Below, in pieces: positions 12,801 to 52,112 of a stretch of 64,000 bases of DNA. Origin of the DNA: Saccostrea echinata. Its lineage: Eukaryota. Where the stretch lies: the NCBI RefSeq assembly GCF_033153115.1, contig NW_026889795.1, positions 9,982,001-10,046,000 on the forward strand. The letters are read 5' to 3'. Position numbers and translations under genes: made by a program. Each line of letters starts with the position of its first letter. The first letter of the stretch is position 1. Below the pieces are notes generated by a model. It searched no databases. It saw nothing but the letters and a program-made list of their open reading frames with translations, and had not been told where the DNA came from.

Positions 12801-15236
12801 TGTGAAAGGGTGAAAATAACACAAGGCGAAAATATCCCTAATACAGTACGACCCCGCAGCTCAGGAGTGGCTGTTATTAAGTTATATGTAATGTAAATAA
12901 AAGAGAGTTTAGACCCATTCACGCGATCAGGAATGAAAAACAAAATGTGTGGAAATATTTATATACACTGTACAAGTATCTATACAGACTGGCAGATATA
13001 TAAAACATCTGTTCAATGGTCTTTTATAGGGAACTGGAAGGTCTTGGGATTGGTTTCAAAGGAGGCGTGGTTATTATAAAGACGGACCAATCAATTTGTG
13101 AGTATGATCTTACATGTACCAAACAACATGTTATCTTCCAAACCAATGCTGATAAAAAATTTTGTATACATGTCATTTTGTGTTTCTCTTTAGCTCTAGC
13201 CCTTGTCCTAGAACACAACATATACCTAATTACAGGTAAGATATTTACAAAATGTAATCTAATTGCATATTCTAAATTAATGATAATTAAGTTACTTATA
13301 CATGTATACAACACATACTTAATAATTAACAAGTTACATGTACATGTAAGTTAGTTTCACAATATATACTAAGATATACCAAATTGCAGGTTAGTAATTT
13401 AAACAACAACATATAATCTAATGCAGCTTAGACCTTGCATCATGATATGCAAGTATTTATACATGTGAATACATAAAAAATCTGTTGCAAAGATTCCTTT
13501 TGTATATTCCCCTGGCCTGAAAAAAAAATTGTTAAAAAGCTCATCTTTTTTTTTCAAATACCTATGCATCTTTACTCACACATTTTTATTTCAGTGGTTG
13601 TGTAGGAGCAGATAACTTAGATGAGAAAGACAATGCCAGAGAACCTTTCAATCCCTATACCATCAAGAGAGTGAACATTCCTAGATACAGCGAGACAGGG
13701 CAGTAAGTACAGCTGCACTATTGATTATAACGACCTGGCTCCGGGGCCATAAAACTTAGATGATCTGAACTGTTGATTCTAATGACCTGGCTCCGGGGCC
13801 ATAAAACTTAGATGAGCAGAGCTGTTGATTCTAATGACCTGGCTCCGGGGCCATAAAACTTAGATGAGCAGAGCTGTTGATTCTAATGACCTGGCTCTGG
13901 GGCCATAAAACTTAGATGAGCAGAGCTGTTGATTCTAATGACCTGGCTCCGGGGCCATAAAACTTAGATGAGCTAAACTGTTGATTCTAATGACCTGGCT
14001 CCGGGGCCATAAAACTAAGATGAGCTGAACTGTTGATTCTAATGACCTGGCTCCGGGGCCATAAAACTAAGATGAGCTAAACTGTTGATTCTAATGACCT
14101 GGCTCCGGGGCCATAAAACTTAGATGAGCTGAACTGTTGATTCTAATAACCAGGCTCCAGGGCTATAAAACTTAGATGCATATGAGTTCTAACTTTTGAT
14201 CTCAGTCTCACTTTCAAAAAAGGAATTATATTTATTGGAAAAGTGACACTGAGATCAAAATTGATCTCATCTAAGTTTTATGGCCCTGGAGCCTAATTGT
14301 TCATCACAAAATAGACAAGATTTCCACAAAATAAAGTTCTATAGATAACTAAAAAGCATATGTTTCTTGAAAAATAAAATTCTACGAAAATTATGTCAAG
14401 ATCTTCATGTGTCTTCCTCTTTAGAACTTTGAATTGCATTACAAAAAAATCCAATAATATAAGTAACTGAGATTTTAAAAAATCTTGGTTATATGGAAAT
14501 TATATATCACTTCCAATCCCTCATATCCTAGAACTTCCTGGTATGGATAATTATAAAGAAATACATTATAAATAACTTACATTATAAATAACTAAAATAT
14601 TTATGTCCCAAGGAATTCCTTATGAACTAGTTTTACATCAATTATAATGCACAAATTTAACTTTCCATTCTTATTGAATTCTTTGATTTCTTTTCAGTCG
14701 GCCAAACATCCCAGGCTATCAGGGCTGTACTTTGTGGCAGGGAGTCTATGCTCCAGCTCATTCTATGAAAGTAATTAATGCTCAGAGCACCACTTCAACG
14801 GTTCATAAGTAAGTAATTAATGCTGCACCACTTCAGCAGTTCATAAGTAAGTAATTAATGCTCAGAGCACAACTCCAACAGTTCATAAGTAATTAATCAG
14901 TTCAGCAGTTCATAAGTAAGTAGTTCATGCTCAAAGCATCACTTTAATAGTTCATAAGTAATTAATGCTCAGAGCACCACTCCAACAGTTGGTCAAAGCC
15001 TCTCTCTCAATACTTTGTGTATTTTGGGGTCAAAGCCTCACTCTCAATTCTCTGTATTTTGTGGGTCAAAGCCTCACTCTCAGTTCTCTATTTTTAGATC
15101 AATGCCAATATCCCCCAATAACTCAAACCACAAGCGGGAGTCTCAGATGTCTAAGATGGTGACCACTGTTCCTCCTTGTAATCCATTCAACCAGATCAAC
15201 AAACTGGAGGAGGTGCTGGAGAGTAAAGTCCAGTAA
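6173..15236 (+). CDS. SPATA48: SPATA48/C7orf72-like protein; exons 6173-6707, 9289-9350, 11460-11551, 12280-12418, 13030-13097, 13194-13235, 13595-13702, 14698-14808, 15098-15236
   Basis: Nine exons splice in phase with GT..AG. Motifs WNSR..SQLGGWTS, STQKSYEEVPWDNMLPPK, WDWFQRR..PINFSSPCPRTQHIPNYSG, RPNIPGYQG and SKMVTTVPPCNPFN match my recollection of the SPATA48 family. Confidence 0.8.
6839..6901. repeat. Compound microsatellite (TTTA)n(GTT)n
   Basis: Direct reading; source of the YLFI and poly-Cys tail of the unspliced ORF. Confidence 0.9.
9705..10210. mobile_element. MITE with TA TSD and AGCATC-rich interior
   Basis: TA|CAGTGCAGGGAACTAATTTTGTTACA ... TGTAACAAAATTAGTTTCCTGCACTG|TA; 26-bp TIR with 1 mismatch. 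Confidence 0.85.
12386..12680 (+). repeat. About 55-bp tandem repeat spanning the exon 4 3' end and splice donor
   Basis: AAAAGATACGACCCCGCGGCTCAGGAATGGCAG|GTGAGTTACATGTAACGTA, about 5 copies plus a partial copy. Confidence 0.9.
13711..14293. repeat. Nine-copy 52-bp tandem array made from a MITE left end, followed by the rest of the MITE
   Basis: GACCTGGCTCCGGGGCCATAAAACTTAGATG recurs at 13732, 13784, 13836 ... 14148. The inverted counterpart CATCTAAGTTTTATGGCCCTGGAGCC is at 14268-14293. Confidence 0.9.
14771..15097 (+). repeat. Two adjacent tandem arrays filling SPATA48 intron 8 (about 42-bp donor-side and about 37-bp acceptor-side units)
   Basis: GTAATTAATGCTCAGAGCACCACTTCAACAGTTCATAAGTAA about 6 times, then GGTCAAAGCCTCACTCTCAATTCTCTGTATTTT 3 times. 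Confidence 0.85.
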
Positions 15237-18033
15237 ACAGTTAATAAGAAAGACGTCACATATCAGACTGTTCATTCTTTATTGTTTTTTGGAAGCTCAA
15301 TGTTTACCTTAAGTATTGAATAATGCATAGTAGTTAAGCTACGTTGATAAGTTGGCCACATTAAGGAGCTGGCCATTGTGGATACAAGAAACTTTTTTTT
15401 TAATTGAATTTTCCCAGAAAGCTATTTTTCTTCCTTATCTATTATATCTGGTGTTATATATGTTAAGTGTATTGATTACTGGTTTAGGGTCCTTAAAATT
15501 GGCCCACATATGTATTCTACACAGGCCATTGTAAATTTTCATTGCGTTAAAGGTACTTTTATTGAAACTGCCTTGTGACTTTCATGTCGTCTCTCTGGGA
15601 AGTGAAAATGATTTGAGTGTGCATAAAAAAGCTCAAAGTCTCAATGTTCAGGACAAATCAGTATTATTTTTATAAATGTAGACGATATATAAATAAAGGT
15701 AGTATTTTTCGTTTTGTAAATAAATATTCTGTAATATTTTTAAGTTGTTATGTTTCCCTCTATATGTTGTAAGATGATTGGTTAATATCATCAAATTCTG
15801 CACACTGCAACTAGATTTCCTATTCTTATGGAGTGATGCACTACTATAACTATGTCAGTTTTGTTGTTAGTGGGAGGAGGAAATTTAATACATGTTGTAT
15901 CTGTTGTATGAGAGTTTTCCCTCCTAGCTCCCCTTATTTCTGCTACTGTTGAAAAGAAGAATAAATATTTGTGCAGCTCATAATGGGTGGTATTATGGGT
16001 GTATGTGTCAGATGATTTTAATTTTCTTGAGTGAAGTATTTCATTTTATTTTTTTAAAATCTCTTGGATACTGTATATCTGTTGAATCCATTTACTGAAC
16101 TATTTTATGTATTTTTTTAAGCAAATAAAAATGTGATCTTGTTTGTTTTAACCTGTGTTCTATTCTTTATTTGTTCTTTGGACATTTTAGTTAAAAAAAA
16201 TCTCATCAAGACTTTGAAGATTTAATAACCGACAAAACAAAGTTGTTAATTTATTAATCGTTTCACTGACAATTTTCTATTGGCAATATAAGATATCTAT
16301 GTATACTGCCCCATAGATCAATGGTCTAAAAATGAAGAAAATTAAAACAAAAGGACCAATCGCATCGATATCTTTTCATTAATTTTTATGTTGACTCTAA
16401 CCTTTCTGATTTGATCCTTGAGATTCTGTGAAATCACTTATTTTCGTGGAAGTTAAATTTTCCTTGTTTTCGTGGTATGACGGAGCCTCGAATACAGCCC
16501 CCCCCCCCCCCCCCCCCCCCCCCCCGAAATGCTAAAATTTTATATAACAGTATCGTGTATCTTCTTCATCCACGAAGAAGAAATCCCCCGAACCAATATT
16601 TTATTCTCAATCCTAGAAAATTTGACCCCTCGAAGGGATTGTATAGTCTGTAAGCACAATTATGTTTTAATTTCATGTATAATGTAGATTCAAATTTGTC
16701 AATATCATAGTCCAGAGAACGGGAAAAGTGGACGAATATAAATGAACATATCAGGAAAACCTCTTTAGAAATTTGTTTACTAACCACAGCAGGGCTATGT
16801 ACAATATTACTGAAGCAACTTCATGTAGTGTTGGTTTTGTTCACATAAGTTTCCTAGTGGTGAGGGCACAAAGGATGTAAAAATTCATCATTATACCTCG
16901 GATTTTTTTTTGTTTAAATCGTCTTCTCAAGAAGAGAATGACCACAAAACATATTGATTGGCAGGTATTTTTATACGTTGTACGTTTAGATCTGCTCGAT
17001 CTGGAGCAAGGTTGGGCCAACAATATTGAGTGGAAATTTTACAAAATACAAAGGGAAAAGCAGAGTATGATAATTACAGGTCATAGAAAATCTTATTAAT
17101 ACTGTATGTACAGATTAATATATTTGTTATTTTCGCCCCGTATTAGTTTTGCCCTATTATATGTGCAAACAATTTTACCTCGTTATAAGTTCGCCCAGAT
17201 AAAATTGTTCTAAAAGATATAACTATGTAATTATTGAATTTGCTTCATTTTCGAGGGCGACAATTTTTCTATAAATATTTCATTTTATATACAAAATATA
17301 TGTTTACAGTAATCCAATGTAGATTCAGATATGCTGACGCGGGTACCTCCTTCAAGTTAGGGATGGAACAGCAAATATTGAAAGAATCTTTCAGGACTTT
17401 TTGTCATTCAAAGACGATCGAGTCAATATTAGTAAAATTACAATGCGCGCGTACACTCCCATGCAGTGTTGACTCGATCCAAAATCTTGGCTCGAGGTTT
17501 AAAGCTGAGGCTACAGTTGGGGATCAACTGTAGCGGAGCAGCAATTAACACAAGATGGTTTCAGAGTGGTGCCGTTTATTACAAGGATTATATACTAGTA
17601 CCAGATTCTGCAAAACAATAAAAAATTCATTAACTAAATTTGATATCACATATAACAGCAGAATCTGTTGTCATCATAAAATCAGATAATTACTACATAT
17701 TAATTAGGTCATAAAATAATAAATATTGACACAAGTCAATGAGTTATATCTCTTGACAATCGATATTTCTCTTTATATATTCACTTCATATAGTGGATAA
17801 TAAATATTTACCGTATACATATAGCTACATACAATGTACCAAACTATGGGTACGAATCCATCTTTAATATATTTCTAATACAGTATATATGTCTTGCTAT
17901 GGATTTAATATCTACAATTCATAAATAACATTTATACAATATATATCCTTTGTGTCATAAAATACATTAGTTCATTACAAAGATTAAAATCAACTAGTTC
18001 ATCAGCTTTTGACAAACTTAAATAATTTATTAA

Positions 18034-18168
18034 AGTAGGGAAAAAACCAGGGTTCTGGACCAGTGTCCTCCCATAGAGTTACTATGGAGGATCCTCCTGG
18101 TATCCTCCCAGCGTGTGAGGATACCCATGACGTCATCTAATGAATTTAATTAACAAATTAATTATGAA
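18034..18168 (+). repeat. Polinton left TIR
   Basis: Reverse complement of 27195-27329 with 2 mismatches in 135 bp; weaker similarity extends about 20 bp further. Confidence 0.95.
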
Positions 18169-18830
18169 ATATTAATTAAAATTAATTATATTTTGATTAT
18201 TAATTACATAATTTTTGAAACGATATGATTCTGTCATGTGTAGTCGGAGTGTCAATTAAATTAATTATATAATTATACACACTAGTAATCTCAAAATGTT
18301 TCAAACGCATTCGATTCTAACACAGATTCAATTCAACTAACTTTAGAGTAACTTTCAAAGAGTTAAGGCTTTTATGACATTATGTAACCATTTTCATTAA
18401 TGATATTATTTTTCCAAAAAGAATCATTTGAATTAGTCTCCCTATATCATAGAGTAGCCAACAAAGGTGTTATAGATAGTCCTCGCCAACAAAGGTGTTA
18501 TAGATAGTCCTCGCTTACAACAATAATTGATTCAAACACAATCGGGAGTTGCACTAACAAAATTTGAATCAGTGACAAGAGACAACATTTATTTTTTAAT
18601 TAGATTTTTATTTTCCCCGTTACAATTATGAAGCATGGGTTGGAGAGCCATCCCATGTCCATTTTACAATGACCTACAGCCTAGTCTATAATGTACAATA
18701 CATTTATTTACACTATGAGAGTCGTCTACCATCCATCATATCATACTGAAGCGATCTGTGTTTATGTACGCTCTTTCTGAAAAGATGGAATCTGATGTTT
18801 GACCTGTCCAGGGTAGTGCACTCTCCTATA

Positions 18831-19937
18831 TCATAGATTTGAAACATCAGACGCCTTGATCCAAGAATTAAATTTCTTTGGATAATAAAACCATTTGACG
18901 AAATATTGTTTGTTATTCCCCTTTCCTCTAGTCTTTAATATTTTTTCAACTTTCCATAGATCATCGTCTTTCACATCCACTCTTTGAAGTTCTGATTGAT
19001 AAAAAGATCCTTTGATTTCATCTCCGTCAAAATCCTCTACTCTGTAGACAGGTAAACCACCACGTAAAATCCTCTGAGAAATGATAAATATTTCACCCGT
19101 CCACCTTTCGTCATATTCGAGAGAAAATGGATTCCTGAGATGGGTAAGTCGAACGTGGTCACCGATTTTAAATCTAAAAGGTTTTCTTACAGTCTTCGTC
19201 TTTTTAATAACTGTGTGATCCTTTGGCCAATACATTTTCCACCACACAGCTGTTTCATTTCCACTGTTGACAATTTTAGGAGTCATACCGATAGTTCGGT
19301 GATATGTGCTATTGTAGCTTTTGACAAAAGTTTGAAGTTTTTCAATATATGCATACGACTTTTGGTAAGTAATAAAACGATATATCCTTGTCTTCATGGT
19401 TTTGATGACCCGCTCGGCAATTGCTGCTTTGGTTTCATTCTGAGCATAAAGATGTTGAACATCATGATCTTTGAAGAGTCTCTGAACTTCCTTCGCTCGA
19501 AATTCCTGTCCTTTATCTGTTCGTATTCTTTTAGGTACTCTATCCTCCTTGAAAATGTCCTCTAAAGCAATGGCTACTGTAACCCCCTTTTTGTTTTCCA
19601 AAGGACGCATCCACAGGTACTTTGATAGAACATCGATCACGACCAGTACATACATGAATCCTTCGTTGTACTTGGCAAACTTGGCCATATCCATGAGATC
19701 TGCAGACCACTGGTCATCAATACCCGTCACCATTATTTTGTTTCGTTGAAAACGTCTCCGTAGTGGTCTTTGTAAGCTGTAAGCTTCTTGTTTTTGCAAC
19801 CATTTCCTAATTTTGTATTTGCTAATTACATATTTACCGTCTTTTCTCACATACCGGAATAATTTGTCTGGTCCCAGAAAACTACCAGCATTATTTGGAT
19901 TGTAATAAATGTCACGTAAATAGTTCTCCCAAGACAT
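18831..19937 (-). CDS. Retroviral-like (rve) DDE integrase with C-terminal chromodomain, Polinton type
   Basis: 368 aa. QWSADLMDM (D), RIRTDKGQEF (D), AIAERVIKT (E), YNSTYHRTIGMTP, FKIGDHVRL; chromodomain WKVEKILKTR...QYFVKW...FNSWI. Confidence 0.95.
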   Translation of the reverse strand: MSWENYLRDIYYNPNNAGSFLGPDKLFRYVRKDGKYVISKYKIRKWLQKQEAYSLQRPLRRRFQRNKIMVTGIDDQWSADLMDMAKFAKYNEGFMYVLVVIDVLSKYLWMRPLENKKGVTVAIALEDIFKEDRVPKRIRTDKGQEFRAKEVQRLFKDHDVQHLYAQNETKAAIAERVIKTMKTRIYRFITYQKSYAYIEKLQTFVKSYNSTYHRTIGMTPKIVNSGNETAVWWKMYWPKDHTVIKKTKTVRKPFRFKIGDHVRLTHLRNPFSLEYDERWTGEIFIISQRILRGGLPVYRVEDFDGDEIKGSFYQSELQRVDVKDDDLWKVEKILKTRGKGNNKQYFVKWFYYPKKFNSWIKASDVSNL

Positions 19938-20007
19938 GTTTCCTCGTCAATCTCCAGCGGTAAAATGAAATAAAAGTTATATATTACATAAATTTATGGA
20001 GGACAAT

Positions 20008-21642
20008 TTATTCACCATTTTCATCCTCGGTTTCATCTTCAGAATCTGTGTCATCATCTTCATCATCTGTTTGTTCATCGTCTGTTAAATACATCATCTC
20101 CTCAAGGAGATGTTTGTACTTCCTGAGAGCCATACGAACAGCCGGTAAGTTTTCATATCCCTTTTTAAGGAACTTTTCAATACTATTCATTATTTTTCCG
20201 TGGATCTGTCCACCTTTCAAGTCTAAAATGTCCAGAATAGTTCTTCCATATAGGTCTAAAAATGCAATAAAATTGGTTTCCTGCATTTTGTTATTTGCTT
20301 TATTTTCTGCTTCCATTTTAGACAATCCCTCTTTTCGATATTTTTTGAACTTTTCATACCACGTATCCTCATTTTTAACCTTTGATCTTTTTTTCATTCT
20401 TTTGAAGTAGTCTTCTTCTGTTGATGCATTAGGAGAATCATCGTCATAGTCCATTGCGTATTCATCTGACTGAAAGATATGCTGCTTCTTTTTAAGTGGT
20501 TCCTCATAATCATCCAGAGGGAGTTGTCGTTTACGATTATCATTTTCCGGGCACCATCTCTTGACATGTTGTTGGAGGTCATGCGTACTATCAAATACGA
20601 GTCCACAATCATCACAAGATGCCATCATAGAACGCAAAGATGTATCAGTGGATTCAAAAGTTTGACTCTTTACTTCACCAGAGCTATTTAGATGCGTCCT
20701 TTCTTCTTCGGAAAATCTTTGCAAATGACTTGTTGTTTCTGGTTTGTGTTCTTTTATAGGCATGTCTGTGAAAATTTCAGTGCGCATGCGCATTGATTCA
20801 GGCGTTGTCGGTTTTAAATCTATTAAAAGATATCCAAAGGGTTTTTCTGTTGCTTCTTTGAAATGCCTCATCAATTGTTGGGTATTTCCAGGATACATCT
20901 GTCGAGCCAATGTCATCACTTGTTGTTTGTCTATTGGATTTTTAAAAAGAACGAGATAATGACAGTTTCGTCTTTGGGTTGGATCTTTGTTGTAGAACAA
21001 GTTTTGGTTAATAGCGATGACTGAAAGGTTTCTATGATGGCTTCCTTCAGTAAACAATTCATTGATCCGGGAATCCTTGGAGGTGCTTGACATCATATCA
21101 TCTAAAATCAACACATTTCTTTTTTGAGGATTTAAAAAAGAATCCTCTTCCAAATCCATTGGTATTCCTCGAATGAATTCCACGCTGGGGAAAACCGTGT
21201 CCTTTATGACGTCATACAAAGGTTGCCACCGTTTATAAAGCCAAATTATCCGTTCTGGCGGGGGAGCAATTTTGGTTAGACAGTTTTGTAATAGTAATTT
21301 GACAAAGTATGTTTTTCCACATGAGGTTGGTCCCGATACGTTTGCAGTAAATGGATGCTTGAATTGAAAAATCTGCTGCTGCTGCTTAAGATGTGTTTCC
21401 TGGTATTGTTTCTTTGAAGCGTCATTTATCTTTTGTTGCGTTAAAAAGGTTTCTTCTTGCAGTTGATTGTTTAAAGTGCTGTATAACTCTTGCTGCTGCT
21501 GCTGGGTTAACATTGTATATTCCTGCTGTTGGTTGAAACTTACGGTATATCCTTTATCTTTCCTCGGGTGTTTCAGTTTCAAGTGACGCTGTAAATCATG
21601 AGGCCACACGTAAGTTTTGGGGCAGAATTTACATTGATTCAT
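20008..21642 (-). CDS. Polinton packaging-type (A32/FtsK-HerA-like) ATPase with N- and C-terminal zinc fingers and an acidic tail
   Basis: 544 aa. Walker A HPFTANVSGPTSCGKT, Walker B LILDDMM, LFTEGSHHRNLSV, NCHYLVLFKNPID, KPFGYLLID. C2H2 finger CKFC..HLKLKH, polyQ tracts, second finger CDDC..HVKRWC. Confidence 0.9.
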   Translation of the reverse strand: MNQCKFCPKTYVWPHDLQRHLKLKHPRKDKGYTVSFNQQQEYTMLTQQQQQELYSTLNNQLQEETFLTQQKINDASKKQYQETHLKQQQQIFQFKHPFTANVSGPTSCGKTYFVKLLLQNCLTKIAPPPERIIWLYKRWQPLYDVIKDTVFPSVEFIRGIPMDLEEDSFLNPQKRNVLILDDMMSSTSKDSRINELFTEGSHHRNLSVIAINQNLFYNKDPTQRRNCHYLVLFKNPIDKQQVMTLARQMYPGNTQQLMRHFKEATEKPFGYLLIDLKPTTPESMRMRTEIFTDMPIKEHKPETTSHLQRFSEEERTHLNSSGEVKSQTFESTDTSLRSMMASCDDCGLVFDSTHDLQQHVKRWCPENDNRKRQLPLDDYEEPLKKKQHIFQSDEYAMDYDDDSPNASTEEDYFKRMKKRSKVKNEDTWYEKFKKYRKEGLSKMEAENKANNKMQETNFIAFLDLYGRTILDILDLKGGQIHGKIMNSIEKFLKKGYENLPAVRMALRKYKHLLEEMMYLTDDEQTDDEDDDTDSEDETEDENGE

Positions 21643-21705
21643 GATGATCGACGCTGACTCCTCGACTACAGAACATCAAATGACCAGTCTCTCTCATGTC
21701 ACTTC

Positions 21706-24700
21706 TTAAATACTCAAAGTCATTGCATTATGGGAAATTCTCCAATGTCCATGAGCTAATGTGTGAATTCCATCGTTCAATATATAACGTTTGTCATCAA
21801 AGGGGGAAAGAGATGTTTTGTTCAAGGCAATGGTATGTATCTGATGTTTTTCTGATCTAAATGTAATCATGGTTTCCATGTGAGATTCTCTTTGAAATAA
21901 ACATTCTTTGTACGACGAATGGCGCATAATCACCGATTTGCTGACACCTTTAGCTGTTGGTCCATAGGTAAGACTATACATTTTTGGTCTCAAACCTACA
22001 AATTCTGTCATAGGCTCTGACATGGTTTCATCTTTCATTTTACCCAAGACCTTTTTGTTGGTGTCATCATATAGAAAATGATCACTTGGGTAATCGCTGA
22101 AATCAAAATGGTGCTTTACTTTCTCCAGATCCTTGTACAAGTCTTCCGTAAATATATTGTAACATAAGGAATCTGTGTCTGTGAACAGTAACTCTTCATT
22201 TCCTCCATATGTGTATTTGACATTGTTGTAGTGGAAATGATACATCAGTACCTTTGACATTTCTAATATGGAAAATCCAACGTATATAGGGCAATTCAAG
22301 ACAAGATTCTGTTTTGTAAGTTCCACCGATGCCAGATCTTTGTTGAATATCTTAAATGATTTGAACCCTGGTTTTGCTGTAACCTTAAGAAGCCTTTGCT
22401 CCCGGTGAATAAGCTGAATATCTACTCGTTTTCTGAGATTTTCCATTGTCTTTCCAAACACACTGTTATTCATTAATTTGTAGAAGTCTTTTTCAAAGTC
22501 ATTCTTAGCTGCTTTTCGCATGTTTGTATTAAAGTCAATGTACTTTTTCAACCATGGCTCCTGTTGAAACGCAAGCACTTGATGAACTTTAGTGACCTTC
22601 ATACCGAGTGATAAGTATAGCTGCAAATTCCTATAGTGAATTACGTAATCGGTTTTGTTGTGGAGATTCGGAACTAATTTTCGAGTTGATGTTTCAAGAA
22701 GATTCAGCTCTTTGAGTAGTTCTTTCTGGTAGGATGATAGCATATTTGGTTTCACTTCAAATGGTTCTGGTGCTAACGGATAATCACTGTGAAGGTCATG
22801 TAATTCTGCTGGATAATCAAGATCCACTGATAAAATGTAGCCTTCTTTAAAATCTTCACTGATATTTTGAATATCAAAAGAATTTATTTCCTCCTTGGAA
22901 AGCCATCGGAATCCGTGTGATGTAAGAGCTTGACTCATTGACCATCCATATAAGTTGTTTGCATCTAGATACATGAGGTAATTGTTTGGTTGGCTATGAT
23001 TGTAATCTTCTACATATGGATTGTTAGCTTTGGCGTATCTTTGTGATATCATAGAAATGCCTCCCCTCAGACCCCTTTCAATGAATAGATGCATGTCAGG
23101 GTCTGTAAAAAGTTCTAAATGAACGTCTGTCATTTTTAGAGCCGCTTGCCATGCCAGTCCCGGGGCAGTGTAAAAATGTGCTGGGTCTAGTCCATAAATA
23201 CGAAGACAAAGATTTCTAAAGTTTTCAAATACATCGGCTAAAAGAATGATGTCAGTTTCCATATAGAGATCGTGATAGTCTCCTAAGTCGGACATCTCAA
23301 ATGTTTTCCAAACAGACTGTGCATGATAAAAATCAGCTTCTGACAAATCCTGATCATCAATACTACTATGAAAAGCTGATCTCTCTGGAAGACATTTTTC
23401 TCGAAATTTATCTATACTATCCATGTACTCGTAGGGATACACCCCTTTGCGCATGAGTAAATTCATCTTTTCGTTAATTTGACCTGGATGCTGCTTTTCA
23501 ATATAGTGATGAAGGTGCTTAAACTTCTCTACACCTTCCTTTGAAAGGTTTTTCACAAGTTTTTCTAGAGATGTTGACAGAAATTGAAAGGAATCAATGA
23601 AATCCAGTTTTCCCATTGAAAAAGATATGTACTTTTCATGGTTCTGTGGAATGCAGCTCAGTGTTTTGGTTTTCATTTTTCCAATTGCTTGCATGATTAT
23701 GTGGGAGTCGTATCCCCTTAAATTGTGAAATAATACAGGTATGCGTTCCCGTTGTTTCAGGTTAAGGTTGCATGTATTATGTGCAGCACCTCGGAACTTC
23801 CCAGTTACGTGGCAATGGTCGCGAACACGATCTGCACCCAATTCTTGCATACATATATGGCATTTTTCAGCAGTTTGAAACAAGTTTTCATCGTTTGTTG
23901 ACATCTCAAGAGGCAAAGGGTTCCGGAGAATTTTCATCAACCTTTCTTCCACTTGCACCATGTGTCAACAAACGTTTCGGCAACATTCTCTCCTCGGTAT
24001 GTCACGTGATCTTCCGTAAGATTGTCATCAGGTCCAACAATCTTATATGTAAACCCTGAAGGAGTGTGTTTTGCTAGCTTAGTTGTACTTGGCTTAGACA
24101 AGTTGGGTTGGCATGTTGAAATTTTGGAGGATATGCACTCAAAATCTGCATATATGACAAAATTAACTTTCTGTTGCTTGGAAACGTCAGAATAGCTCAG
24201 CCACTTATTTTCCTCTGAAGGCATTTCTATCCTTTGAGCTCCATGCACTTTGCAATAAGGTCTGTGCTTTTCCAACAGTTTTGCTTTTGTAAAGCCATGT
24301 AAACAATAGCAGCAGTAGAAATACTGGTTGCGATCGCTGTTTTGTTCGGCTAGAAGTCGATTAAAGTTTTTAATCCAGCAGTAATGTGATCGTTGTCCGT
24401 TTGTTATCACTAAAAGATCTACGTGACGCTCGAAACGCTGCTTTGTCAAATGAATGAGATAAACATGTCCTTTTTCATAACCAAAAACATTGACAGATAT
24501 GCCATTCTGGATTTCGAACTTAATAATGTCCTTCATCTGCATTGGAAATTCTATTCCAGTAAAGTCCAGTTCATCAACATATGGAGCGTAATTTGAAACC
24601 CTTTTGGCATGGTGTGCTGCTGGGTGTAGCGCAGATAAGATAGCCCATTGGAAGCATTTCTGATCTGTATTTTGTACGTTCACAATGGCTTTTTTGACTC

Positions 24701-50292: not shown

Positions 50293-52112
50293 TTAATCTT
50301 CATTGGATAAATTTAACTCCAATCGCAATTTTTTATTCATTAATTGGTAATAAATTGTTTGCTCCTGTATCTTTTTCTTCTGTTCTACCAAAACTTCGTA
50401 CTGCATTCTTGTAACATCTTCGGGCCTTATTCTTTTACGTTGACCTCGATCATTTGGAGTTCCCACTTTTTTTGACCTACAATGCAAAAGGGTAAACTTT
50501 TACAGTTGTGATTGTGCATGCGGGATTGAAATTCAGCGTTAACGTATGTATGTAAAATTACCTTTTTATGATTAAGAGTAGCTTATGAAGATCTTACCAA
50601 ACTAAATAAATCTATTATGTACTAGTTCATATACTGATACACGTCTATGCATTATAATGTACATTTGAAAAAATAAAATTAAAAAAAAATAATAAATTTT
50701 GGGTAATTTTATGATTAAACCATGAAATGGTGAGCAAGTTATTGTATTTTCTACGGTTGAACTGTTCATTTAAATTACTAATTTTCTAAGTTTTATTACA
50801 TGCTTGACTCCACACATGTCTCCATGCTTGTGGCTGCAGTACTAGTTTTATTTTCTATGCTGGTTATTTCTTCCACCATCTGATCGGGCGAGCAATGAGT
50901 CTCCTGGATTGGTGTGACTTGTTCTGGCTGAAGTTTTAATTCATTTTGCTGGTGGTCAAGTGGAATCAGCAGATCAGTAAGAATTGAGACGGTATTTGGC
51001 GAGCCAATCAAATTGATGTTGCTTTCATCTTTGGTTACAAGTAAAAAAAGAAAAGAGATAATACTAGTACTACAGTATACCATAAAGGTTTTAGATTGAC
51101 ATCATTTCAAACCACCCTCATTGCCATGCGCAGACCTGGGGGGGGGGGGTTTCCAGACACCTTTGAAGTTCTTTGGAGGAGTCATACATGTATATATGAA
51201 GCTTGAGAAGCGAAGAAAAGACGCTCAAACAGCCCCCCCCCCCTCCCCAACTTCATGTTAGATTTGCGTTCTAAATTTTAATTCAACAAAACAAATTAAT
51301 TGAATTATAATGGGAGTAAAAATGAATTTGATGCCCGCATAAATTAATTTTTGCTCTTACCAATTCTAATCAAGTCAATCGTTGTCATTTGCACACCTGT
51401 GAAAACTACTGTAAGCAAAGGGAGAAAACTACTCCAATTTGTTTGTCTATACTGCCTGACCCTTTCAGAACCTCTTCGCAGATTTATATTACCGATACAT
51501 GTTTACTATTACTTTACACAATATTTCTTATGACATATAGATGATTTTGCAACTTGATTCCGATGAACTTATATACCCCCCCCCCCCCCCAAAAAATTTA
51601 AAAAAAATCAAACCCTTATTTATCAATCCTTGTATCTGGTCCATATAATATTTAATATAAGTAATTTGTATTTTATATTTCTTGCAAATTGAGAACTTTA
51701 ACTTACCAGGTGCCTGAGTCTCGAATCCGGATAATCCATTAAAAGTTGGAGAATCTTTGTAGATATCAACGATCTTTTCGCTGACTGTCGAAAGAGGTTT
51801 TGCGCAGGGTCCTCCCCCTGTTTGTCTCTGTGAAAGTTTGTTGTAGCTGAATTCCTTTTTTGCCGTCTGATGCATATTGGTCCATTTGGTTTTAATCTCT
51901 TTAGTAGTGCGACTTGAAACTCCTAACGCATTTATTTGCGCTGTGATATTATCCCATACTTTTTTCTTTTTCTCATTGGTAACACTATTGGTTAGTTTGC
52001 TATTAATGATGTTAATATTTCTCTCCACCAGTTCGGCTAAAAGTTGAATTTCACTAGAATCAAAATTTTTCCCCCGATTTCTATTACATTTAAATTGAAT
52101 TCCTTCGGTCAT
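50293..52112 (-). CDS. Harbinger Myb/SANT-like (trihelix) DNA-binding protein, 272 aa; exons 52112-51707, 51028-50800, 50476-50293
   Basis: RGKNFDSSEIQLL...KKKVWDNITAQINA...RTTKEIKTKWTNM...QTGGGP. Exon lengths 406+229+184=819 nt in frame, with a coiled-coil-like C-terminus. Confidence 0.85.

Follow-up and report, generated by a model that had tools for sequence, protein, structure and literature searches.

The locus described here raises the question of why an element that encodes no capsid carries a packaging-type ATPase, and what the zinc fingers and other domains fused to this ATPase do. The window, the whole stretch of 64,000 nucleotides of Saccostrea echinata DNA that we analysed, holds the ATPase gene between the genes of a family B DNA polymerase and an rve integrase. 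The features are listed below in the order of their positions.

18028..18033, no strand: target site duplication, left copy, 6 bp (same hexamer at 27330-27335)
18034..27329, no strand: capsid-less Polinton/Maverick element of 9,296 bp, delimited by inverted ends and target duplication
18034..18180, no strand: left terminal inverted repeat with four GAGGAT motifs and a TGACGTCA site
18831..19937, reverse strand: rve integrase with chromodomain, 368 aa (Pfam rve E 3.7e-13, Chromo E 5.8e-08)
20008..21642, reverse strand: zinc-finger-fused packaging-type ATPase, 544 aa, single uninterrupted ORF
20011..20079, reverse strand: acidic tail, 17 D/E among the last 25 residues
20080..20421, reverse strand: helical domain of no known family, residues 408-521 (pLDDT 93)
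20551..20616, reverse strand: zinc finger 2 (C2HC, CxxC-x12-H-x4-C), residues 343-364, three cysteines invariant in 66 aligned sequences
20767..21369, reverse strand: A32/B204-type ATPase core, residues 92-292, assigned by fold matches and motifs
21097-21111, reverse strand: Walker B of the ATPase core
21310-21333, reverse strand: Walker A of the ATPase core
21375..21386, forward strand: array of four GCT triplets, the second polyQ run; predicted finger 1 site
21492..21503, forward strand: array of four GCT triplets, the first polyQ run; predicted finger 1 site, length differs among copies
21565..21633, reverse strand: zinc finger 1 (C2H2), residues 4-26, helix W/D/R at -1/3/6, target GCT predicted by the residue-base code
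21706..25436, reverse strand: family B DNA polymerase with two N-terminal C2H2 fingers, split by a frameshift into two ORFs in the window copy
27183..27329, no strand: right terminal inverted repeat with four GAGGAT motifs

Polintons generate a target duplication of 6 bp. Such a duplication flanks the window element and is exact in 22 of 25 other elements checked, the remaining three being shifted or different at one base. Together with the terminal inverted repeats, the rve integrase, the FtsK/A32-type ATPase and a polymerase with family B motifs, it is a feature that the element shares with Polintons/Mavericks (polintoviruses, adintoviruses) as characterised in the available parts of PMC4028283, PMC8502044 and PMC11161782. 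The element differs from them in its length (9.3 kb against 15-20 kb), in the absence of capsid, penton and protease genes, and in its ATPase, which has more than twice the usual Polinton length and carries fingers. Neither an ORF nor a profile match for capsid, penton or protease was found in the window element, and it has no unassigned ORF of capsid size. It is a Polinton derivative and not a complete polintovirus.

Besides the window element there are six more copies, full-length or nearly so and about 98% identical, each with both ends and its own flanks. Contigs of the runs X1 and X2 contain the empty-site joint of the duplication at 18028..18033 and join across the element (17910-27427), so the insertion is polymorphic. 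The polymerase is unbroken, as one ORF of 1,250 aa, at L031, L032, L033 and L035. Its family B motifs are visible and its relatives within capsid-bearing Polintons are 42-55% identical, and it has no Pfam DNA_pol_B_2 match; a divergent class of Polinton polymerases is reported in the part of PMC8502044 available. None of the sequencing runs that contain the locus is recorded as RNA. Contigs from three putative RNA runs (two studies) span about 18.6-25.5 kb and cross the ATPase gene without a splice joint, a weak hint only. Elsewhere in the window there are a rhodopsin-family GPCR ORF (32003-32947, forward strand) and a Myb/SANT-like ORF (51528-52112, reverse strand), host or other transposon genes unrelated to the element, as well as tandem arrays and elements with inverted repeats, of a kind typical for oysters (633-1280, 12330-12713, 13659-14282, 35318-36230 and 53045-54205).

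The initial annotation had described the protein as one uninterrupted frame with two fingers, an ATPase, a helical region and an acidic tail, and both the ORF check and the structure model bear this out. In the alignment-based model finger 1, the ATPase, finger 2 and the helical domain are confident blocks with disordered links between them; the linker between finger 1 and the ATPase comprises residues 27-91. The top solved match of the ATPase core in a PDB fold comparison is the genome-packaging NTPase B204 of STIV (PDB 4kfs, 4r2h), with E about 1e-7 and a TM of 0.6-0.67 depending on the target. Unlike the window protein, B204 is a compact archaeal virus protein without fingers, and the identity is 14-16%. 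In a library of viral models the core matches the A32 and IVa2 proteins, and Pfam gives a weak match of the window protein to IVa2. Sequence searches of the PDB with the 544-aa protein and with capsid, helical and penton profiles returned nothing significant.

The helical domain has 1,244 relatives at E 0.001, with no clear Pfam or PDB family and no viral fold at E 0.001. Its best Z, 6.6, is to generic helices, its atlas matches are due only to the finger, and it has no similarity to the unknown ORFs of the complete Polinton. We do not take these missing matches as proof of a new fold.

A search among proteins of 299-952 residues found 554 homologues. Those with a species name among the best 120 come from scallops, mussels, clams, the pearl oyster and Solemya, and judging by these sequences the fusion is widespread in bivalves. 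The fused clade has a support of 88% in a quick tree of 82 rows. A scan of viral contigs gave 26 pattern matches, none of them confirmed as a relative.

For the ATPase core, dN/dS is 0.07 in three comparisons within the window's own family (family A) and 0.08-0.10 in family C. In family D omega is 0.20, from four palindromic elements with 11 synonymous and 8 nonsynonymous changes (p 7e-4). The finger and helical domains mostly have values of 0.07-0.27, at higher distances, and the linkers are near neutral. These values leave out a comparison with the broken copy C36 and a whole-gene estimate, which were misaligned. By these ratios the fused ATPase is under purifying selection, and with the invariant cysteines of finger 2 they support the earlier proposal that the added modules are conserved and selected.

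Within the oyster genome 33 elements with a fused ATPase were mapped, one of them without its right end in view and two at the same site. In one ATPase search of the genome 80 of 486 candidates were scored, and in a second one 79 of 741, so the family counts are lower bounds. Families A, B and C and two single elements are 7.8-11 kb long and encode polymerase and integrase, with two different polymerase types. Family D consists of near-perfect palindromes of 7.2-7.5 kb, which contain the fused ATPase gene twice, head to head, and nothing else, and which look like fold-back products of a protein-primed replicon. Its members (C54, C16/C28 and C27 of G000; L050-L054) have arms that are 99.9-100% alike, and the elements are about 96% identical to each other. 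An assembly artefact was considered as the source of the palindromes and is ruled out by exact target duplications at three separate sites; it is also contradicted by the higher likeness of the arms within an element than between elements.

Family E (3.3-4.5 kb; L077-L083, L200, L201) encodes only a short penton-like ORF and the fused ATPase, and most copies are broken. The penton-like ORF, intact or broken, is present in all six family E elements examined and is 44% identical to the ORF preceding the capsid gene of a complete element. The penton label is based on the position before the capsid gene and on a resemblance of motifs, assessed by eye, to a published PX alignment. The copies of family E show decay, and the penton-like ORF has more nonsynonymous than synonymous changes among copies. 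The penton profile matches only these 6 of the 33 elements and none of the window's family.

None of the 33 elements with a fused ATPase in this genome contains a major capsid gene. A profile of 57 capsid sequences and two further capsid queries gave no match at E 1, and two queries for the adenain-like protease gave no match either. Each of the 15 capsid-bearing Polintons examined has a compact ATPase of about 210-240 residues that carries no added domains.

The association of the fused ATPase with the absence of a capsid, which the initial annotation had proposed to examine, also appears outside this genome. From metagenomes and genome bins 87 loci were used, 80 of them retained from 151 and 7 added; the helical domain is present in 39. 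A capsid-module gene was found in one of these 39 and in 15 of the 48 loci without the helical domain (Fisher p 5e-4), a weak sign of capsid absence since the median contigs are 2-3 kb long. In L175 capsid, protease and the complete fusion follow each other in a row, and in L130/L135 and L108/L143 a finger-ATPase joined to other tails lies beside capsid-module genes. The idea that loss of the capsid caused the repurposing does not agree with these loci; as the full fusion adjoins capsid and protease genes in L175, it is not a product of capsid loss. We propose that the fusion originated within capsid-bearing Polintons or next to them, and that it allowed descendants without a capsid to persist.

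The loci can be ordered as a reduction series in which the ATPase is kept last. It runs from capsid, protease and fusion (L175) over penton, core-like ORF, array and ATPase (L180, which lacks the capsid and protease genes found between these in a complete element) to penton-like ORF and ATPase (family E) and to the ATPase alone in the palindromic elements. The initial annotation had also considered that the flanking segments might be separate ORFs in other copies. This was seen for the finger 2-helical-acidic part only, which is a separate ORF in L122 and present as an extra copy in L137, so the fused protein may join two finger-led genes.

Three further observations concern these loci. L108:472-1971 has the finger-ATPase-finger in frame with an adenain-like protease and a penton-like ORF upstream. 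L100:1-4221, from another host, is a contig of 4.2 kb bounded by inverted repeats, with a fused ATPase (apparent intron) and a cargo gene with CARD plus RING. L175-L181 are seven contigs binned as bacterial that carry animal-type elements, probably as host contamination.

C2H2 fingers follow a recognition code that relates residues of the helix to bases. Helix positions 6, 3 and -1 read bases 1-3, as given in the portion of PMC4005693 available. Applied to finger 1, this predicts GCT for W/D/R, found with CAG runs; GTT for W/S/R, with CAA; GTG for R/A/R, with CCA; GCG for R/V/R, with CCG; and GAG for R/N/R, with CCT. The predicted triplets are nearly always on the antisense strand. The code entries for W(-1) and V(3) were fixed after a first look at the finger-repeat data.

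A prediction was possible for 20 lineages, of which 13 have an array, and 12 of these 13 arrays match (permutation p 5e-6, with the two code entries set after the first look). The other seven have no tandem array in the linker or within 400 bp upstream; family E has its array 3' instead. For 13 held-out loci, two of which are also among the 20 lineages, the rule was written beforehand; nine match, two miss and two have no array (p 9e-4). Mismatching arrays are those of L133, L115 and L075.

The repeats leave their trace in the protein. PolyQ is found with all four fingers that have W, L or Y at -1. With R at -1, 20 of 30 proteins have polyP, one has polyQ and nine have neither. Codon usage tracks the finger: CCG encodes 19/23 linker prolines and 1/23 elsewhere in family C, CCT 20/24 and 5/22 in family D, and CCA 20/25 and 4/25 in family B. 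For the window linker the excess of CAG is borderline (p 0.054). The only two runs of at least three copies of any of the six tested triplets in the 9.3-kb element are both GCT and both in the linker. Arrays also occur outside the coding sequence, upstream of the gene in L180 (46 tandem GCT) and L144, and past the stop codon in family E. A tree of 27 rows requires at least 12 changes of finger class among 24 of the rows, and three close sisters differ in both finger and array at once. Strict tree-independent pairs are too few to test (two same, none opposite and two unchanged; three, none and none).

Taken together, finger 1 very probably binds the triplet array of its own element, as far as code and repeats can tell. 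Finger 2 is not a family-specific reader, because its recognition helix is nearly constant across families (helix tally). The polyQ linker noted initially is present in the window protein, but it is modest (19 Q per 70 linker codons, two runs of five) and replaced by polyP in most relatives. As the DNA repeat matches the finger 1 triplet, polyQ is probably a DNA signal and not the activator-like module that had been suggested.

The same data bear on the possibility that the gene is a functionless relic of a recent capsid loss, with a repeat that arose by slippage and moves with the finger as one block. The full fusion beside a capsid gene in L175 and the variable repeat length among copies would agree with this. 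However, dN/dS is 0.05-0.10 among capsid-less families at synonymous distances up to saturation, the identity of the repeat follows the finger code even in non-coding arrays, and between close sister families the finger and the array both differ. We find a relic hardly credible.

The terminal repeats have a different partner. The two N-terminal fingers of the polymerase (window 25270-25430) match a hexamer in the terminal repeats (18034-18180 and 27183-27329), which occurs 2-4 times within the first 150 bp of the repeat. Six groups show this match, and none of the ten ends gave an off-diagonal count. The code specifies four of the six hexamers in full; for the other two the last base was taken from the DNA. 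The finger-hexamer pairing changes across the six groups and adjoins the TGACGTCA site. For the family C polymerase no three-finger match was found by eye. On this evidence the terminal repeats match the polymerase fingers, and the ATPase finger is the wrong partner for them.

This match is one argument against an accessory role in replication or integration, in which the ATPase would bind its own genome and translocate or recruit the polymerase or integrase, own or borrowed, without a particle stage. Such a role would suit the position of the ATPase gene directly upstream of the integrase in 13 of the 39 outside loci with the helical domain and in families A, B and C, the single ungapped contig that covers both genes, and the insertion of ATPase-only elements with target duplications. 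The polymerase, however, already has fingers matching the terminal repeats, and it is penton-like ORFs that accompany the ATPase gene in reduced elements. In addition, the available part of PMC4028283 reports that capsid, protease and ATPase are lost in concert, and the capsid-less Polintons in it have mostly lost the ATPase too (nine), so the ATPase is not generally needed to transpose. We therefore consider an accessory role improbable. Table S1 of the same paper, within the part available, contains two of 72 elements that are positive for the ATPase without the other three virion genes. One of these is P_Pd1.1 of the annelid Platynereis (10.8 kb), which is possibly of the same kind as the window element.

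The initial annotation had stated that the ATPase has nothing to package into. This is true of the element but not of the genome, where at least 153 matches to one capsid gene were counted, with scores for 150 of 368 candidates; many of these matches lie in open frames of 470-476 codons. Many more capsid families are present, with capsid identity taken from atlas matches to DJR-like clusters, and there are complete elements of 22 kb. A candidate helper, as a satellite would use, is thus found in the same host. The closest capsid homologues with a species name are consistent with a Saccostrea oyster as host. One complete 22-kb family (L059:2074-2628 and L060:5458-5970) has an IAP-like gene (BIR and RING) and a macro-domain-like ORF, identified by eye.

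Packaging ATPases of this family form a ring. A ring of the fused ATPase would present several fingers to the tandem triplets, and the weakness of a single finger would therefore be offset. The array would serve as an address label on the element's own DNA, so that finger and label could change jointly and families sharing a genome would remain distinct. It is likely that the element tags its own DNA, because the pairing of finger and repeat changes in step across relatives, and the polyQ or polyP linker would be a side effect of having the label within the gene. The motor would then dock at the vertex of a helper capsid and load the element genome into it. Docking on helper capsids is an assumption, since the fused ATPase and the compact ATPases of the helpers seen are only about 32-48% identical.

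We give an even chance to this reading, in which a self-recognising packaging motor loads its own genome into the capsids of complete Polintons of the same host and the window element is their satellite. The fold, the intact motifs, the purifying selection, the reduction series and the capsid-bearing relatives in the genome are all consistent with packaging. Among the functions that the initial annotation had offered, a specificity factor for helper capsids fits best. On the other side, family A keeps polymerase and integrase and could spread within the genome without particles.

The acidic tail (at least 12 D/E in 44 of 73 long homologues) fits equally well with self-activation, in which finger 1 would sit on the array, the tail would switch on the element's genes, and the ATPase would serve for oligomerisation or have a second job. 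Most arrays are located at the gene's 5' end or close to it, and the finger 2-helical-acidic module is sometimes encoded by a gene of its own. Adenovirus IVa2, a packaging ATPase, also activates the major late promoter, according to the available text of PMC5033970, so the two functions need not exclude each other. A regulator of this kind has nothing else to activate in the palindromic elements, and still it is the ATPase core that is most constrained; the only intact family E protein (L081) lacks the acidic tail, and its array lies past the stop codon; and the penton-like ORF as sole partner gene is left unexplained. We regard self-activation as unlikely, though it is the strongest competitor of the packaging reading.

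The penton-like ORF also enters a further explanation, in which the fused ATPase would poison the packaging of the helper or compete with it, shielding the element or the host while itself remaining unpackaged. This would fit selection acting on an ATPase by itself and on a penton-like protein by itself. Interference does not need a finger matched to its own DNA, however, and it sits poorly with the many independent insertions of the elements and the abundance of complete Polintons in the genome, so that we find it very unlikely.

The satellite reading has counterparts elsewhere. The phage satellites P4, PICI and PLE have no capsid of their own, keep packaging or specificity parts and use the particle of a helper. 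The window element resembles them and the transpovirons of giant viruses in being capsid-less and retaining a packaging or specificity part, with helper use inferred here. It differs in being an animal nuclear element whose helper would be another endogenous Polinton, and we claim no homology. With adenovirus IVa2, which binds repeated packaging sites (A-repeats, with L4-22K) and is also a transcription activator (PMC5033970, available part), the window protein has in common a packaging ATPase with repeated sites on its own genome, here predicted only. It differs from IVa2 in its fused C2H2 finger with a readable code, in microsatellite sites that are often inside the gene and in its capsid-less carrier.

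Neither a finger-fused ATPase nor such satellites are described in the available parts of PMC8502044, PMC11161782 and bioRxiv 2025.04.19.649669, 2025.02.07.637071 and 2026.10.13.758929. Searches of the literature found no description either.

More broadly, layered satellites of endogenous Polintons, down to elements of one or two genes, may hijack helper capsids in animal genomes by means of their own packaging motor. They would preserve their identity by two programmable zinc-finger locks, one between the ATPase finger and a microsatellite within its gene and one between the polymerase fingers and the terminal hexamer. This is quite possible, with the balance slightly against it.

Maverick particles were unobserved as of 2021, according to the available part of PMC8097293. 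That a packaging ATPase is under selection as the lone virion gene of elements without a capsid is an indirect sign of helper particles in molluscs. How double jelly-roll viruses choose the genome to be packaged is largely open outside adenovirus, and a readable finger code with a natural series of matched sites would make genome selection directly testable. The arrays further suggest that selection can act on a polyQ or polyP tract through its DNA rather than through the protein.
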